8,940 bases of DNA, taken from IMG/VR virus record IMGVR_UViG_2700989521_000019; one strand, 5' to 3'. The stretch is from a virus. Taxonomy: Duplodnaviria; Heunggongvirae; Uroviricota; Caudoviricetes. The notes under the pieces are model-generated. The model saw only the letters and a program-made list of their open reading frames with translations, did no database searches and had not been told where the DNA came from. Position numbers and translations under genes: made by a program. Shown piece by piece: positions 2,555 through 8,940 of this stretch (within the stretch, counting starts at the first letter, position 1; the number at the start of each line of letters is the position of its first letter).

Positions 2555-2647
2555 CCTTTATCAAGGTAATCGATGAAAAGACAAAGCCCCGCAAGTGTCG
2601 TTACCACTCGCAGGGCTTCTAACCAACAACGTAAACTAGGAGCCGTT

Positions 2648-2845
2648 ATGGTTGCTGTAAATCATATACCACACCTTGTACACACACAAACGGCCTTTGT
2701 GTGGCGTTTTCTGGCACTGAGTGCCGGAGAATCTCAAATCATCCACGTAACCGCCTGGACGGAACGCGAAGCGCGTAACCGTTGCCCGTCCGGTTGTGTT
2801 GCTGTATTTGCCGCCCGTATTCGTCAGGAGGTGCGCCATGATTAA
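2648..2845 (+). CDS. Small protein (65 aa), first gene of rightward operon; possibly Icd-like (cell-division-inhibitor-like) family, assignment uncertain
   Basis: ATG 2648 with TAGGAG SD 7 nt upstream; MVAVNHIPHLVHTQTAFVWRFLALSAGESQIIHVTAWTEREARNRCPSGCVAVFAARIRQEVRHD. The FVWRFLAL motif recalls small Icd-like proteins annotated in P4-like elements; from memory, not verified. Confidence 0.5.
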   Translation: MVAVNHIPHLVHTQTAFVWRFLALSAGESQIIHVTAWTEREARNRCPSGCVAVFAARIRQEVRHD

Positions 2846-3050
2846 TCTGTCACTTACTGACCTTAACCGCATTCAGTTTCGTGAGAAATTCACAGGGCAG
2901 CTACTGGTCAATGTGGATAAAGGTCGCGTGGTGTGTAATTACCACTTACCAGATGAAGCAATTGTCGCCACAAGGGAATCATTACAGGAAATCACAAAAC
3001 GTGCCGGAATGATTAACACGAATATTCAGGGGATGCTTTATGCACAATAA
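2838..3050 (+). CDS. Hypothetical protein (70 aa)
   Basis: ATG 2838 overlaps the stop of the upstream gene (translational coupling); AGGAGG SD 6 nt upstream. MINLSLTDLNRIQFREKF... No recognised family. Confidence 0.55.
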   Translation: MINLSLTDLNRIQFREKFTGQLLVNVDKGRVVCNYHLPDEAIVATRESLQEITKRAGMINTNIQGMLYAQ

Positions 3051-3279
3051 AACCACACCGGACGCAGCCGCCGAAGCCATCAAAACGCTGATGCACGCGC
3101 TGATTGATATTTCTGTTATCGCGGACAGGGCACATAAGCACGCCACCAGCGAAACAGAATATGCCGGTGCTTTCGTTCCTCACTCACTGGCTGTCATGCA
3201 ATTTAGTGCTGATACGGCGCTGAATGAGGCCAAAGCTATCCTGATTGCTGATTGTGAAAATGGGGGGGGTTATGCGTGA
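3040..3279 (+). CDS. Hypothetical protein (79 aa)
   Basis: ATG 3040 overlaps upstream stop (3048-3050); CAGGGG SD upstream. MHNKTTPDAAAEAIKTLMHALIDISVIADRAH... No recognised family. Confidence 0.5.
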   Translation: MHNKTTPDAAAEAIKTLMHALIDISVIADRAHKHATSETEYAGAFVPHSLAVMQFSADTALNEAKAILIADCENGGGYA

Positions 3280-3505
3280 TGATCGTTTTAATTCCCTGAA
3301 ACAGGAATTTTCCGGCGTTCCTGATGATGCGGCTGATGCGCTTTCGTCAATGCCAGAACTTATTAGAGCGGCTTTTTTCTTACTTTCCACGAGAGAATAT
3401 AAATCAACGGGGCTTGATGTACTGAATATCGCCGCCGATTATGCGGAATATGTGGCAGAGGCGCGTTATAGAAGAAAATTTCCTGAGGATGTAAGCCATG
3501 CGTGA
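3272..3505 (+). CDS. Hypothetical protein (77 aa)
   Basis: ATG 3272 preceded by a GGGGGGGG run (3262-3269); overlaps the previous gene by 8 nt. MRDDRFNSLKQEFSGVPDDAADALSSMPELIRAAFFLL... Start chosen by RBS; the ORF track start at 3245 is an alternative. Confidence 0.5.
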   Translation: MRDDRFNSLKQEFSGVPDDAADALSSMPELIRAAFFLLSTREYKSTGLDVLNIAADYAEYVAEARYRRKFPEDVSHA

Positions 3506-3731
3506 TATTTACCACCAAACAATAGACCGCGCATTTCTTGCACTTTCTCACAGTGAAAACATGATGGAAATATTGCGCATATGGCTTGAAACACTTGGCG
3601 ACAATGAACGCGACAAACAAAAATCAAGAATTGCCACAGCATTAATAACGCTTCTTGAGCCTGTAATAATGGAACTGCAAGAAATAGATCTATTGCACGA
3701 CAGATATAAAGAACAGCACACCGGAGAATAA
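3498..3731 (+). CDS. Hypothetical helical protein (77 aa)
   Basis: ATG 3498 overlaps the upstream stop; GAGG upstream. MRDIYHQTIDRAFLALSHSENMMEILRIWLETLGDNERDKQ... No recognised family. Confidence 0.5.
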   Translation: MRDIYHQTIDRAFLALSHSENMMEILRIWLETLGDNERDKQKSRIATALITLLEPVIMELQEIDLLHDRYKEQHTGE

Positions 3732-3736
3732 AAATA

Positions 3737-4036
3737 ATGAAACTTAAATATTCTGGCTTAACTGCCAGTGGCAACACTCACCCTAAATTTACGCGCGGTG
3801 ATATTTACCGCGACCAGTACGGCGGCACGGTAATGATTAAGGACGTGGAAGAACGGCGCGTAACCTACCGCCGTGAAGGTTACGAATATGATTGCGTGAT
3901 GCCTGTTTATCAGTTCCGGCGTGATTTTTCTCTGGTACAGACCGCGCCGCATAACGTGCCCACCAGCAACGCCAGGGCACGGGCAAACATCCAGAAGCTG
4001 AAAACCATGGTTAACGGATTCAGGGGCAAGAAATGA
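3737..4036 (+). CDS. Hypothetical protein (99 aa)
   Basis: ATG 3737 with GGAGAA SD; the stop overlaps the start of the ATPase gene (ATGA-type overlap at 4033-4036). MKLKYSGLTASGNTHPKFTRGDIYRDQYGG... No recognised family. Confidence 0.55.
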   Translation: MKLKYSGLTASGNTHPKFTRGDIYRDQYGGTVMIKDVEERRVTYRREGYEYDCVMPVYQFRRDFSLVQTAPHNVPTSNARARANIQKLKTMVNGFRGKK

Positions 4037-5433
4037 AAAGCGCACCGAACTTAAAAAAACAGCCTTACGACAAGATGACCGAAGTCATTATTTTTGCGGG
4101 TAGTGATGCCTGGGCACATGCGAAACAGTGGCAGGAACAGGACGGGCGACTGGCTGGCGATAATGTGCCTCCCGTTGTGCTGGCTGATGATCAACTGGAT
4201 GAACTGGCAGACCTGAGAATCATCGACGAGGGGCGCTATTGTGTCCGGCTGTACAAGGCAGGCCACATCAGGCCATCAAATATTAATGCCATTGCGCACA
4301 AGCTGGCGGCGGCGGGTGTAACTGATGCGAATTATTACCCCGAAGGGATGCACAGCCATATGCGGGAGAACTGGCGCGAATACCTGGAACGGGTGCGCGG
4401 GAAAGAGCCGGCGGAAGAAAAAAACCACCAGCGAAAAACCACGCTACCGATGAGCGTTGGATCTACCGGATACGACACGCAACTGGATTACGTGGTTAAG
4501 GGGATTATTCCGGCGGTATCGCTATGCAGCATATACGGGGCTAGCGGGTCCTATAAATCATTCCTTGCCGGATCGTGGGCGTGCCATGTTGCCACTGGTC
4601 GCCAGTGGGGAGGCCGCAGGGTTGCACATGGTGCGGTTCTCTATGTGGTTGGTGAAGGCGGTATAGGTGTTCCGCGTCGTGTAAAAGCCTGGGAGGTTGT
4701 GCACGATGAGCAGGTGAAAAATCTGTATCTGGTAAACCGCCCCATCTTTCCGGCTGCCCCGCTTGATGTTGATGAAATGGTTATCGCTGCCCGTCAGGTG
4801 GAGCGGGAAACGGGTAAACCTGTACGCATGATTATTCTGGATACGCTGGCGCGTTGCTTTGGTGGGAATGATGAAAATGATTCCCGTGATATGGGGGCGT
4901 TTATCCGTGGTTGTGACGAACTGAAACGACGCACAGGGGCCACGGTGCTGGTGGTTCACCATTCCGGCAAGGATGAGACGAAAGGCGCGCGCGGTTCCAG
5001 TGCATTTCGTGCTTCGCTGGATGCTGAATACCGGATACGCAGGGAGGACGCAGGAAGCGAAGCGCTGGTTATCTCATGCACCAAAATGAAGGACGCGGAG
5101 GAACTCAAAGAAGCCGCATATGACTTACGCGTGGTGGAGCTTTTTACCGACGCTGACGGTGAATTAATCACGTCGCTGGTGGTGGTGGATGATCCGCGCC
5201 CTCCTGTTGAACTGGAGCGCATCGAGGAGGCAGGGAACAAGACGGAAAACCATACCGCGCTATGGGGGTGCATCCGTTCACGCACACAGAACGGCGACAA
5301 GTGCACGATCCCGCTGTTACGTGATGACATGAAAAAGCTGGGGTATGAAATGAAAAACTTCCGGCGCTGGCTGTACAAGCTGGAAAAAGATGGGGTTATT
5401 CGTATCGATGGGGATGATGTAGCGCCGCTATAA
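4033..5433 (+). CDS. RecA-fold / AAA-type ATPase, RepA- or DnaB-like replicative helicase-initiator of the element (466 aa); no recognisable primase domain
   Basis: Walker A-like GASGSYKSF (YGASGSYKSFLAGSW), Walker B-like hydrophobic strand plus acidic residue (VRMIILDTLARCFGGNDEND), downstream VLVVHHSGKDETKGARGSSAF resembling DnaB/RepA-type motifs. About 160-aa N-terminal domain of unassigned function. Long ORF with AGGGG SD. Confidence 0.85.
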   Translation: MKSAPNLKKQPYDKMTEVIIFAGSDAWAHAKQWQEQDGRLAGDNVPPVVLADDQLDELADLRIIDEGRYCVRLYKAGHIRPSNINAIAHKLAAAGVTDANYYPEGMHSHMRENWREYLERVRGKEPAEEKNHQRKTTLPMSVGSTGYDTQLDYVVKGIIPAVSLCSIYGASGSYKSFLAGSWACHVATGRQWGGRRVAHGAVLYVVGEGGIGVPRRVKAWEVVHDEQVKNLYLVNRPIFPAAPLDVDEMVIAARQVERETGKPVRMIILDTLARCFGGNDENDSRDMGAFIRGCDELKRRTGATVLVVHHSGKDETKGARGSSAFRASLDAEYRIRREDAGSEALVISCTKMKDAEELKEAAYDLRVVELFTDADGELITSLVVVDDPRPPVELERIEEAGNKTENHTALWGCIRSRTQNGDKCTIPLLRDDMKKLGYEMKNFRRWLYKLEKDGVIRIDGDDVAPL

Positions 5434-5622
5434 AAGTGAGGAGCAAAAGCGAGGGGGATAGAAAGAGGGCCAAAATTAGCCCGCTCTCCCTCACTTTTCG
5501 ACCTGTATACATCCTCAAAAGTGAGGGGTAAAAAAATACTTATGAAACACACACATAGAAAAACCGAAAATCCCAACTGCGACGAAGTGAGACGCTTGAA
5601 AAAGTGAGGCGAAAAAGTGAGA
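5433..5622. repeat. Iteron-like cluster: six copies of core AAGTGAG (consensus AAAGTGAGG) at 5433-5441, 5489-5497 (inverted), 5518-5526, 5585-5593, 5601-5609, 5614-5622, plus degenerate copies (AAAGCGAGG 5446-5454); candidate ori or operator array
   Basis: Read directly in the 200-bp intergenic region between the replicative ATPase gene and the ssb-containing operon. Confidence 0.55.
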
Positions 5623-5633
5623 GGTTGCGAGAA

Positions 5634-5885
5634 ATGACCCAAAAACGCAGAGACAGAACAGAGCCAAAATATAAAGCGTTAGACATGACTGAGCACACCT
5701 TAAAGGTGGCAATCAGAACGATAGACCGCCACACGCGGGAAGGATACGCGAAGGAACATCCCGACCTGATAAGCGCATTCATGACCACGGTGGCGGCAAA
5801 CTTTGCCACGCTGACAGAACGGGAGATTGCCGAAGCGGAACAGGTAACAACCATCAACGTTAAAACCGGAGAGGTGGAATTATGA
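5634..5885 (+). CDS. Hypothetical protein (83 aa); start ambiguous (GTG 5604, ATG 5634 or ATG 5685)
   Basis: ORF in frame with plausible GAGAGG SD before ATG 5634; stop overlaps the ssb-like start. MTQKRRDRTEPKYKALDMTEHTLKVAIRTIDRHTREGYAKEHPDLISAF... No recognised family. Confidence 0.45.
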   Translation: MTQKRRDRTEPKYKALDMTEHTLKVAIRTIDRHTREGYAKEHPDLISAFMTTVAANFATLTEREIAEAEQVTTINVKTGEVEL

Positions 5886-6292
5886 CGGCACAGATAGCCG
5901 CTTACGGGCGGCTGGTGGACGACCCGCAGGTAAAACAGACCAGCAAGGGCACACCGATGACGCTGGCGCGTATGGCGGTATCTTTGCCATGCAGCCAGGC
6001 ACAGGACGGACAGGCGACGTTATGGTTATCGGTCATCGCATTTGGCAAACAGGCCGACTTCCTGGCTAAACATCAAAAAGGCGATGTTGCCAGCGTATCC
6101 GGCACGATGCAGGTAAGCCAGTGGACCGGACAGAACGGAGAAACGCGGCAGGGCTGGCAGGTTATCGCAGACAGCGTAATCAGTGCCCGCGCGGCACGTC
6201 CAGGCGGGAACAGACGCAAAACCACAGGCACACAGGGTAATCAGCCACCAGCGGGAGGCGATGACCCTTACGGTGATGATATTTCGTTCTGA
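5882..6292 (+). CDS. ssb: Single-stranded DNA-binding protein-like (SSB family), 136 aa, element-encoded
   Basis: N-terminal OB-fold-like pattern (IAAYGRLVDDPQVKQTSKGTPMTLARMAVSL...WLSVIAFGKQADFLAKHQKGDVASVSGTMQVSQWTGQNGETRQ), Gly/Gln/Pro-rich linker and acidic C-terminal tail DDPYGDDISF resembling the SSB tail DDDIPF. GGAG SD; start overlaps upstream stop. Confidence 0.7.
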   Translation: MTAQIAAYGRLVDDPQVKQTSKGTPMTLARMAVSLPCSQAQDGQATLWLSVIAFGKQADFLAKHQKGDVASVSGTMQVSQWTGQNGETRQGWQVIADSVISARAARPGGNRRKTTGTQGNQPPAGGDDPYGDDISF

Positions 6293-6302
6293 GGGGGTGA
6301 CG

Positions 6303-6575
6303 ATGGTACATGACCGCATAGCGGAGGAACTGGAGGCGAAAGGCTTTTACCGGAGGGCGGCGGCGCGATGGGGTGAAGTCATGCAGCTGGTGGAGACAGG
6401 CAAGGAACGGCATCACATCACGATGCGACGGCTGGAATGTTCAAGGAAGGCACAGAGGGCACCGGAGCCGCCGGATAATTTCGGAGACCTGAAAAAGGCA
6501 GTCGATCGCACTTATGCCGAAATGGGTATAGATGGTGCTGGTGATGAAATATGGCGCAATTACCAGGACAGCTAA
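6303..6575 (+). CDS. PerC-family transcriptional regulator-like protein (90 aa)
   Basis: Start ATG 6303 with GAGGGGG SD 5 nt upstream (the longer ORF from 6183 overlaps ssb and lacks an RBS). N-terminus AEELEAKGFYRRAAARWGEVM matches the conserved PerC motif (EEKGLWRRAAxRW) as remembered. Confidence 0.65.
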   Translation: MVHDRIAEELEAKGFYRRAAARWGEVMQLVETGKERHHITMRRLECSRKAQRAPEPPDNFGDLKKAVDRTYAEMGIDGAGDEIWRNYQDS

Positions 6576-6581
6576 TCAAAC

Positions 6582-6605
6582 AGCCGGAGAAATCCGGCTT
6601 TTTTT
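6582..6605 (+). terminator. Rho-independent terminator after the perC-like gene
   Basis: AGCCGGA-GAAA-TCCGGCT (7-bp stem, GNRA tetraloop) followed by a T6 run. Confidence 0.75.
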
Positions 6606-6701
6606 GCACCAGTTGAAACGGTATGGCGCATTACCGGGTTTTCGTCACGGTCAGGCATAGTTACTATCTGAAACAAACAGACACAACAGAGGAAAAAAAC
6701 A

Positions 6702-6926
6702 ATGCCGATGAAATTTGATGAGATATTAAAACAGCGTGATAAATACCATGCTGACAACATGGAGACGATGAGCATCAATGATTACCGCGCATTCCTGGAG
6801 ACGGGCGCACTGATTGAAAAGGATCAGCATGGTTTTGTGAGATGTGCTCTATCCGGTGAAATGCTGGCGGTAAATCCTGAACAGATAGATGCATTGATAG
6901 AATTTCTGAAAGAGATCAGAGACTGA
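6702..6926 (+). CDS. Hypothetical protein (74 aa)
   Basis: ATG 6702 with GAGGAA SD; MPMKFDEILKQRDKYHADNMETMSINDYRAFLETGALIEKDQHGFVRCALSGEMLAVNPEQIDALIEFLKEIRD; bounded by terminators on both sides. No recognised family. Confidence 0.55.
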   Translation: MPMKFDEILKQRDKYHADNMETMSINDYRAFLETGALIEKDQHGFVRCALSGEMLAVNPEQIDALIEFLKEIRD

Positions 6927-6945
6927 GCCAGCACACAGCACACAT

Positions 6946-6968
6946 AGCCGGAGCAATCCGGCTTTTTT
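6946..6968 (+). terminator. Rho-independent terminator, near-duplicate of the one at 6582-6605
   Basis: AGCCGGA-GCAA-TCCGGCT (same 7-bp stem, GNRA loop) followed by a T5 run. Confidence 0.75.
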
Positions 6969-7007
6969 GCGCCCAAAAAAAGCCCGGCGAGTCAGATTTC
7001 ATCAATC

Positions 7008-7745: not shown

Positions 7746-7750
7746 CGAGT

Positions 7751-7800
7751 AGCGACATACCGTGACGGAGAGTGACAACCAGTGACACGCCGTGACAAAA
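7751..7800. repeat. Five tandem 10-bp units carrying core GTGAC/GCGAC (agcgacatac cgtgacggag agtgacaacc agtgacacgc cgtgacaaaa); helically phased repeat array
   Basis: Read directly, immediately after the stop of the 7464-7745 ORF; second 10-bp-phased array in the window (compare 1261-1310). Confidence 0.45.
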
Positions 7801-8574
7801 GACGGTTTAACCGTTAATTAAAAATTGACGGGATTTTGTGCTTTCCGGACGACGTGGCCAACGCCATTTTTTAGCGAAAAGTTCTGATTAAGGTCATTGT
7901 CTGAATGGTCATAATGACCACTCCTACAAAACAGGTAAAGCCCACCAGCCTGATTAACAGTTAACCGGAAAAAAATCCGGTAGCCCCGTTATGGGGATCC
8001 CCATATCAACATTAACGCCCCTCATGAATTAGCGCGCTTCCCCCTGGAAAGATGACCCGCCTGTATATTTCTTGTGTCTATTTGTTCCACGTTGTTTCAT
8101 ACAGTGCACCGAACGGTGTAGTCACTGGTGTAGTCATTTTGCGATTTATGGCACTTTTTGTAGTGAAAACCCCGTTTTTTCTTCCTTTGCTAATAATAAT
8201 GTCTTTTTCGCTCCGTCATCATAACGAAAATCAAACCGCTCAGGTAAAGAAGTGAAAATATTTTGAGTTAATTCTTAAGCTATGATACAAATCAGGCGTG
8301 TTCAACTACCGAGGACAATTATCATCCGCGATGACGAGAAGCAACACTGCGGATAATTGTAATATTATGGACAATTTGTTCAGGACCTTATTTTCAACAT
8401 TTACCCATCTTCGTACCTCATCCACTATCTTGCTCGTAGGTGAGCAGCACTGGCGCAACGCGCTTTAGTCCTTTCTTCTGCCTAAGCTTGCCCTATGCGC
8501 GGGGCTTGACCACTTTACTTTGATTTCGCTGAATTAAGCGAAAATTAAAATAATTCTCTTGCAGGAGAAGGACA

Positions 8575-8940
8575 ATGTATATTTATTGGATTTTATTAGG
8601 CCTGGCTATTGCTACAGAAATTACCGGTACGCTGTCAATGAAATGGGCGAGCGTCAGTGAGGGAAATGGCGGCTTTATTTTAATGCTGGTGATGATTTCT
8701 CTGTCGTATATATTTCTCTCTTTCGCCGTTAAAAAGATCGCCTTAGGCGTAGCTTATGCGCTGTGGGAAGGTATCGGTATTTTATTTATTACCTTGTTTA
8801 GCGTTTTGTTATTCGACGAAAGTTTATCGCTGATGAAAATTGCCGGGTTAACCACCCTGGTCGCCGGGATTGTGTTGATAAAATCAGGTACCCGTAAAGC
8901 GCGTAAACCTGAACTGGAGGTGAACCATGGCGCAGTTTGA
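8575..8940 (+). CDS. mdtJ: Multidrug/spermidine efflux SMR-family transporter subunit MdtJ (121 aa), complete
   Basis: Translation ([33 protein letters not shown]...[21 protein letters not shown]) matches Escherichia coli MdtJ as I remember it; small four-helix hydrophobic SMR protein; AGGAGA SD 7 nt upstream; stop TGA 8938-8940. Confidence 0.93.
8927..8940 (+). CDS. mdtI: Start of mdtI (SMR partner subunit), truncated by window end; only codons MAQF visible
   Basis: ATG 8927 overlapping the mdtJ 3-prime end, reading MAQF, consistent with the remembered MdtI N-terminus and the mdtJI operon arrangement. Only 14 nt visible. Confidence 0.45.

Follow-up and report, generated by a model that had tools for sequence, protein, structure and literature searches.

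A putative replication origin beside an SF4-type helicase gene in an Escherichia coli phage-inducible chromosomal island

The repeat array behind rep and its described counterparts

The closest described counterparts of the element studied here are the replication origins of Gram-negative phage-inducible chromosomal islands (PICIs) and of staphylococcal pathogenicity islands (SaPIs), the latter, with their Rep initiator-helicases, reportedly treated by Ubeda et al. in PNAS in 2007. SaPI Reps are self-loading initiator-helicases of the AAA+ class, similar to the superfamily 3 (SF3) and MCM groups and with a reported preference for leading-strand translocation, whose C-terminal winged helix reads 5-6-nt iterons 3′ of rep; a SaPI origin has 6-12 iterons directly past the rep open reading frame (ORF) around a central AT-rich tract, and the iterons on either side of this tract run in opposite directions (Qiao et al. 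2022 NAR, PMC9371898). In Gram-negative PICIs the origin follows rep at once on its 3′ side and has an AT-rich region between two sets of iterons, and for EcCICFT073 plasmid maintenance was dependent on rep and ori (Fillol-Salom et al. 2018, ISME J, PMC6092414). Here we analyse the 8940-nt stretch of IMG/VR record IMGVR_UViG_2700989521_000019 (the window), which its sequence identifies as an E. coli PICI, and in it a cluster of short repeats that fills the 200-bp gap between the helicase gene rep (4033-5433) and an 83-aa gene, itself followed by ssb. The initial annotation had placed a candidate replication origin between the ATPase gene and the ssb operon; the gene order is as it described, and position, architecture, comparative behaviour and literature all support the candidate computationally. 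We read 5432-5632 as the replication origin of the island, recognized by the adjacent helicase, and put the probability of this reading at roughly 0.85.

The 9-mer AAAGTGAGG occurs exactly four times in the window, on the plus strand at 5433-5441, 5518-5526 and 5601-5609 and on the minus strand at 5489-5497, and two plus-strand copies have one mismatch (5446-5454, AAAGCGAGG; 5614-5622, AAAGTGAGA). The description of the cluster as five direct copies and one inverted copy thus holds if one mismatch is allowed, the exact copies being three direct and one inverted. All six matches with at most one mismatch lie within 5433-5622, that is, six within 190 bp as first noted, and none was found outside this interval on either strand of the window, where 1.9 would be expected for the whole window. 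Within the 201-nt region the largest family of 9-mers, counted on both strands with at most one mismatch, numbers six, and the maximum in 1000 first-order Markov simulations of the same composition was four. Further degenerate copies are also present, as had been claimed: at least two weaker ones were found, GAAGTGAGA at 5584-5592 and a GCGAG core at 5627-5631, and nine AAAAGTGAG-like sites were counted in 5400-5650. The true repeat unit is one base longer than the 9-mer and reads AAAAGTGAGG. Because the first 9-mer copy shares the last base of the rep TAA stop codon (5431-5433) and the next gene starts with its ATG at 5634, 2 nt beyond the last weak copy (5627-5631), the span of 5433-5633 first assigned to the cluster is exactly the intergenic gap. 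The parts of the array are as follows.

5432-5441, plus strand: iteron 1, exact AAAAGTGAGG, which takes in the last two bases of the rep TAA (5432-5433)
5445-5454, plus strand: iteron 2, AAAAGCGAGG, one mismatch, 13 bp past iteron 1
5459-5463, plus strand: remnant of a third left-hand copy, decayed to TAGAA in place of the GTGAG or GTGGG seen in the alignment with relatives
5489-5498, minus strand: iteron 4, the sole inverted copy, CCTCACTTTT on the top strand
5504-5511, no strand: palindromic centre TGTATACA, between the diverging iterons 4 and 5
5517-5526, plus strand: iteron 5, exact AAAAGTGAGG
5527-5583, no strand: AT-rich tract, with a GC content of 32-34% (50-nt windows), that of the surroundings being about 50%
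5584-5592, plus strand: iteron 6, GAAGTGAGA, weak, with the GTGAG core intact
5600-5609, plus strand: iteron 7, exact AAAAGTGAGG
5613-5622, plus strand: iteron 8, AAAAGTGAGA, one mismatch, 13 bp past iteron 7
5627-5631, plus strand: weak last copy, GCGAG, where relatives have GTGAG or GTGGG; right end of the exchanged rep-ori cassette

Two iteron sets, a left one at 5432-5526 and a right one at 5584-5631, hence flank the AT-rich tract, for which a role as the DNA-unwinding region is proposed. The iterons measure 9-10 bp and are spaced by 10-17 bp. Both outer arrays are co-oriented, the right one with four copies in the same direction (from 5584, 5600, 5613 and 5627), and the single inverted copy pairs with 5517-5526 to the left of the tract, so that iterons 4 and 5 (5489-5498, 5517-5526) form a 40-bp imperfect palindrome around TGTATACA. 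This centre is a candidate melting nucleus or a candidate site for a common factor.

With the SaPI origins the locus shares a proposed union of initiator and helicase in one protein, a predicted C-terminal winged helix, short iterons past rep and an AT-rich tract; it differs in its RecA-fold, superfamily 4 (SF4)-type ATPase, which has no sequence relationship to the SaPI Reps, and in having one inverted iteron only. SF4 helicases translocate 5′→3′, and a polarity opposite to that of the SaPI Rep is therefore expected here. The likeness to the EcCICFT073-type replicon (pri-rep-ori) extends to the island family, the gene order, the site of the origin, the DUF4222 gene upstream and the 83-aa gene, ssb and perC downstream; however, the EcCICFT073 Rep is an SF3 protein (D5_N, DUF5906, Pox_D5) with CTGTCTACC iterons in both orientations, whereas the present Rep is of the SF4/RecA-fold type and nearly all of its AAAAGTGAGG iterons are co-oriented. 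Judged by these comparisons the origin is of the SaPI/EcCI type, with which it agrees in all features that could be checked apart from iteron orientation, for which it has a conserved arrangement of its own. The earlier suggestion that the initiator-iteron pair may be distinct is accordingly borne out for the Rep family and the iteron sequence, but not for the kind of origin.

Three other replicon types are ruled out, since their defining features are absent here. Phage P4, also a satellite of enterobacterial phages, has a multifunctional replication protein, alpha, in which a primase and an SF3 helicase are combined with a C-terminal domain that binds short (type I) iterons; the locus here differs in its motif (AAAGTGAGG against TGTTCACC), lacks a primase or SF3 domain, and has a single origin beside rep rather than ori and a distant crr. 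The doubt first expressed that the motif is the P4 octamer proved justified: the region does not contain TGTTCACC, Pfam detected neither D5_N nor an SF3 or primase domain in Rep, and it is a sibling PICI (L171), with a different Rep, that carries TGTTCACC. The likeness to the IncQ plasmid RSF1010 is confined to the ATPase family (PF13481; weak 1g8y match): RSF1010 RepA has no DNA-recognition domain, RepC binds the 20-bp oriV iterons and RepB' primes, whereas here a winged helix appears fused to the helicase and the iterons are 9-10 bp long. Classical iteron plasmids with Rep_3 proteins (pPS10, F, R6K, RK2) resemble the locus in a winged helix, direct iterons by an AT-rich region and an inverted repeat; their iterons, however, are 17-22 bp long and in helical phase, DnaA boxes are present, and the WH1-WH2 Rep, which is not a helicase, recruits DnaB, against iterons of 9-10 bp spaced by 10-17 bp, no DnaA box and a helicase as candidate initiator here.

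Other signals were scanned in the same region. No DnaA box (at most one mismatch), integration host factor (IHF) site, oriC-type 13-mer or GATC cluster of note was found in it, and the lack of DnaA boxes, IHF sites and GATC clusters fits a self-contained initiator. Rfam gave zero matches in the whole window, so an RNA element is not indicated. For 5200-5900 no convincing terminator was seen, one weak minus-strand hairpin being at chance level, and no sigma-70-like promoter was found on either strand. The last result bears on the idea that the repeats are only an operator, bound by a winged-helix or other regulator of the ssb-perC-packaging genes, with replication starting elsewhere or depending on the helper. 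Reps of iteron plasmids do autoregulate through inverted repeats, one inverted pair here makes the 40-bp palindrome, and the array stops 2 bp before an ATG. Besides the missing promoter, however, nine to eleven copies split by an AT-rich tract are the layout of an origin, the binding domain is fused to a helicase of replicative type, and a published PICI replicon has its origin at exactly this place, while the island is transcribed unidirectionally through the gap (PMC6092414). We regard an operator alone as very improbable; a dual role, origin together with regulation, is possible.

Conserved layout and co-variation of Rep with its iterons

The 466-aa Rep (Pfam AAA_25, E=2.4e-43) comprises an N-terminal part (~aa 1-120), an ATPase (aa 148-315) and a C-terminal winged helix (aa ~400-466). 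The ATPase has a weak sequence match to RSF1010 RepA (PDB 1g8y), and Foldseek with the full-length model returned RecA-fold (RadA/Rad51) matches only, plus noise; Rep is an SF4-type, RecA-fold RepA-like helicase, for which we propose the role of an initiator-helicase. Pfam gave zero matches for the N-terminal 132 aa and C-terminal 75 aa of Rep and for the 83-aa downstream protein, and its scan of the ORFs showed no typical separate-initiator or primase domain, RepC and RepB not having been specifically searched for. Because the full-length AlphaFold2 (AF2) model was poor (predicted local distance difference test, pLDDT, 66) and supports the RecA-fold core only, the C-terminal domain was modelled alone; in this model of aa 392-466 (mean pLDDT 85) the chain forms three helices and then a beta hairpin. 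Among the top matches listed by Foldseek in the PDB, most were winged-helix DNA-binding domains (LexA, ArsR, Fur, DtxR/IdeR, ORC, DnaD), with TM-scores relative to the query mostly of 0.5-0.72 and probabilities mostly of 0.8-0.99. The E-values are weak (0.05-0.3), since the 75-aa domain is short, and the call was based on the consistency of the matches and on their TM-scores. By this modelling the C-terminal domain is confidently predicted to be a winged helix.

For comparison, 166 loci with helicase relatives, equal to 136 distinct combinations of C-terminus and downstream DNA, were taken from E. coli genomes, GTDB species representatives and IMG/VR; the genera include Xenorhabdus, Kosakonia, Kluyvera, Pantoea, Serratia, Pectobacterium, Morganella and others. 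In representatives of Escherichia, Xenorhabdus, Kosakonia, Serratia and Pantoea the iterons begin at the stop codon with two or three direct copies. An inverted copy near +60 and a direct one near +90 then enclose a TGTATATA-like centre (about +75), and beyond them lie an AT-rich tract and three to five direct copies, which reach to about +200. The arrangement with a single inverted copy is kept in every genus examined, and in the E. coli relatives the ATG of the next gene comes directly after the last iteron. The centre reads TGTATA(T/C)A or CATATATA whichever iteron type a relative has, and the AT-rich tract keeps its length and AT-richness while its sequence varies. Among 57 distinct sequences of the E. 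coli type, hardly any variation is seen in the centre and in the iteron columns, and the spacers vary freely; within the iterons a single column is split, that of the fourth GTGNG base, which in the alignment switches in all copies together, the inverted one included.

This base is paired with residue 442 of Rep, which directly precedes the recognition helix. Asn at 442 goes with a GTGAG core (52/52 loci), His with GTGGG (36/36), Lys with GTGGG in the form TGGGGGA (25/25) and Ser with GTGCG in the form GTGCGGC (7/7), without exception across 120 informative relatives. Excluded were 14 loci in which no core reached four copies; those of them that were inspected proved to be contig ends, variant cores or origins that are truncated or interrupted, and they hold no counterexample to the rule. 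Column 442 is the only column of the C-terminal domain with a normalised mutual information of 1.0, and on a tree of the ATPase core residue 442 changes at least 22 times and the iteron base at least 21 times. Pure linkage was considered as the source of the co-variation and rejected, because columns 454-466, which lie physically nearer the iterons, score poorly (normalised mutual information 0.02-0.39). In protein-DNA recognition generally, Asn prefers adenine and His and Lys prefer guanine, and the Asn-adenine and His/Lys-guanine pairings seen here match these preferences. Specific recognition of the iterons by the Rep winged helix is predicted from the winged-helix model together with the perfect residue-base co-variation.

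Several relatives show variations on this theme. The origin of L006 is of the G type (AAAAGTGGGG). Helices with Leu/Met443 and Lys444 (KHLKRW, KNMRRW; e.g. L007, L002) go with a relaxed base past GTGNG (GTGGGC/A, GTGAGT/C), and Phe-Arg variants of the helix retain GTG(A/G)GG, which hints that further helix residues read the base after the core. In Xenorhabdus beddingii (L009:3587-4015) two complete tandem origins lie behind one helicase gene: the first, GTGAG, is cognate to the Asn-type helicase, and the second has GTGGGG/ATGGGG iterons in the same architecture. The second origin may be left over from an exchange of cassettes, or it may open a route to replication by the helicase of a co-resident island. 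Contigs from one genome show co-resident islands both in same-type and in different-type pairs. At L131:3917-3955 the left and right arrays are fused and about 160 bp, holding the inverted pair, the TGTATA centre and the AT-rich tract, are gone, a deletion that probably arose through inter-iteron recombination.

Cassette exchange and the surrounding island

Homology between the window and the CFT073/Nissle-type island runs through DUF4222 and about 120 rep codons to 4398 and resumes at 5632; between these breakpoints the latter island has an SF3 Rep (D5_N, DUF5906, Pox_D5) and then CTGTCTACC iterons. Because homology is lost from 4398 to 5632, with Rep and iterons replaced together, the alignments indicate that helicase core, C-terminal domain and iterons are swapped as one cassette. 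Its right boundary is the exact end of the iteron array, and many E. coli islands have the downstream genes in common from 5627-5632 on, without this helicase or these repeats.

The first ~120 residues of Rep (4033-4398) are 87% identical in nucleotides to L169:1435-1809, part of the gene for the unrelated SF3-type Rep of CFT073/Nissle-type islands, annotated 'DNA primase family'; the shared N-terminal domain is modelled as an alpha/beta fold (pLDDT 70-90), and together with the adjacent DUF4222 it may be the constant part of the replication module. Iterons stand at the same position behind the SF3-type Reps of two sibling islands, CTGTCTACC/GGTAGATAG at L169:3203-3433 and, in both orientations, TGTTCACC at L171:3147-3399, which we take to be the P4 ori octamer. 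Two neighbouring proteins were considered as iteron readers and rejected: DUF4222 because an identical protein (WP_000770163.1) occurs in islands with A-type, G-type and CTGTCTACC iterons, and the 83-aa protein, as a specificity partner, because it is common, at ~87-93% identity, to islands with other Rep and iteron types.

Exchange of this kind also bears on the proposal that the repeats are a packaging (pac/cos) or recombination site and take no part in replication. PICIs do have cos or pac sites (PMC6092414). The repeats, however, co-vary with the C-terminal domain of the helicase and not with terS or integrase, they are swapped along with rep while the packaging genes stay constant, and the window retains them though most of its packaging module is deleted, so that this proposal can hardly be credited.

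The genes and coding features around the array are the following.

1-1218: P4-family tyrosine integrase gene (int)
3737-4036, plus strand: DUF4222 gene, directly 5′ of rep whatever the Rep type
4033-5433, plus strand: rep, 466-aa RepA-family helicase, RefSeq 'helicase RepA family protein'
5230-5430, plus strand: region coding for the predicted winged helix (helices aa 405-419, 426-435 and 443-452; beta hairpin 456-465)
5356-5358, plus strand: AAC codon of Asn442, proposed specificity determinant for the fourth GTGNG base
5634-5885, plus strand: 83-aa gene, the first past the origin
5882-6292, plus strand: ssb, single-strand DNA-binding protein of the replication module (Pfam SSB, E=1.7e-16)

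The window also encodes an AlpA-like regulator, Icd-like genes and perC, the genes of the island being unidirectional. Positions 2576-6986 are 99.5% identical to the island EcCIRM12579 of O55:H7 strain RM12579, which has this same rep-ori and is tabulated among the reference Gram-negative PICIs (Fillol-Salom et al. 2018, PMC6092414). The present island sits at tqsA-mdtJ (mdtJ is the ORF at 8575-8940), another PICI attachment site, against ycfD-phoQ for the EcCIRM12579/O157:H7 island (L168, L001), and the published att cores GGACATATTT and ATAACAGCA are absent from the window. Near its right end, past the last island ORF, a 16-nt repeat occurs three times at 7751-7796 (AGCGACATACCGTGAC, AGTGACAACCAGTGAC, AGTGACACGCCGTGAC); these repeats could be integrase/excisionase arm sites or a packaging signal.

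In comparison with EcCIRM12579, L168 and L001, the island is without the major capsid gene, the head-decoration gene and most of terS (~6986, 7747-8165), and close relatives have an Icd-like pseudogene. These losses, the three of about ten iteron copies that are degenerate relative to relatives, and the clear origin-deletion variant at L131 would agree with an origin of the right kind that is a decaying, silent relic in this island. Against this, the rep ORF is intact (466 aa), both flanks of the AT-rich tract retain iterons, four of them perfect and two near-perfect, and the 451-nt segment 5300-5750 is kept at 100% identity in the 20 best-matching records. At 99% identity or more it occurs in 370 complete genomes of E. 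coli, with many O157:H7 strains among them, and in islands whose packaging genes are intact. A relic is thus improbable, if slightly less so than an operator alone. In a search of 5426 complete E. coli genomes, at least 636 had this rep-ori type, among them genomes of O157:H7 and of other strains that produce Shiga toxin.

Proposed initiation and its meaning for E. coli islands

In the mechanism that we propose for an origin at 5432-5632, Rep, made from the gene directly upstream, would act as both initiator and replicative helicase. Its C-terminal winged helix would bind the AAAAGTGAGG iterons, with Asn442, at the start of the recognition helix, reading the A of GTGAG. Rep protomers would gather on both iteron arrays and at the diverging pair around TGTATACA, and either the AT-rich tract (5527-5583) or the TGTATACA centre would melt. 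The SF4-type Rep ring would then load itself without DnaA or a separate loader, the island SSB would coat the strands, and host primase and polymerase would complete the replisome. The analysis itself has yielded the anatomy of the array and its conservation, the prediction of a winged helix, the co-variation of residue with base and the exchange of the cassette; binding, melting, self-loading and replication at this site we infer from them.

Several points weigh against this reading. RSF1010 RepA, to which the ATPase is related, is a helicase only and depends on a separate iteron-binding RepC. The Gram-negative PICI replicon that has been tested, EcCICFT073, uses an unrelated SF3 helicase, and a demonstration of replication or binding for the present Rep type was not found in the literature. 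The flanking arrays run in the same direction with one inverted copy, in contrast to the opposed iterons of SaPIs, and the poor full-length model and weak Foldseek E-values given above count on the same side. Finally, copies at 5446, 5459-5463, 5584 and 5627 are degenerate and the island has lost capsid and terS genes, so that its origin could be weakened; that this partly degraded island still fires is somewhat less sure than that 5432-5632 is an origin read by the adjacent helicase. As for a broader claim, that such loci form a class of self-loading replicons in which an SF4 helicase carries its own winged-helix reader and a one-residue, one-base code is switched naturally, we consider the chances to be about even.

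The finding is sound and largely expected, because origins of this kind have already been described for PICIs. No paper was found on this Rep type, its iteron or the residue-base rule, nor anything specific on EcCIRM12579. The iteron is absent from the text and supplements of PMC6092414, a statement that does not extend to its Fig. 2a, which shows the iterons of several E. coli PICIs and in which this set is possibly already drawn. What is modestly new is the SF4-type initiator-helicase together with the specificity pattern of one residue and one base.

The probable origin and likely initiator are hereby located for a type of PICI that many E. coli genomes contain. PerC, a virulence regulator, is encoded in these islands, and an origin lets them amplify after helper-phage infection and spread. 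The comparison further shows that PICIs swap, at a single fixed position, cassettes of helicase and origin whose helicases belong to unrelated superfamilies, and it offers a concrete specificity rule, residue 442 against the fourth core base. If the rule is true, a code of Asn for A, His or Lys for G and Ser for C, with at least 21 co-changes on the ATPase tree, would yield mutually orthogonal satellite replicons, and the exchange N442H combined with A-to-G iterons would re-target replication. These islands would then provide a simple model of initiator-origin co-evolution and a kit of orthogonal mini-replicons.

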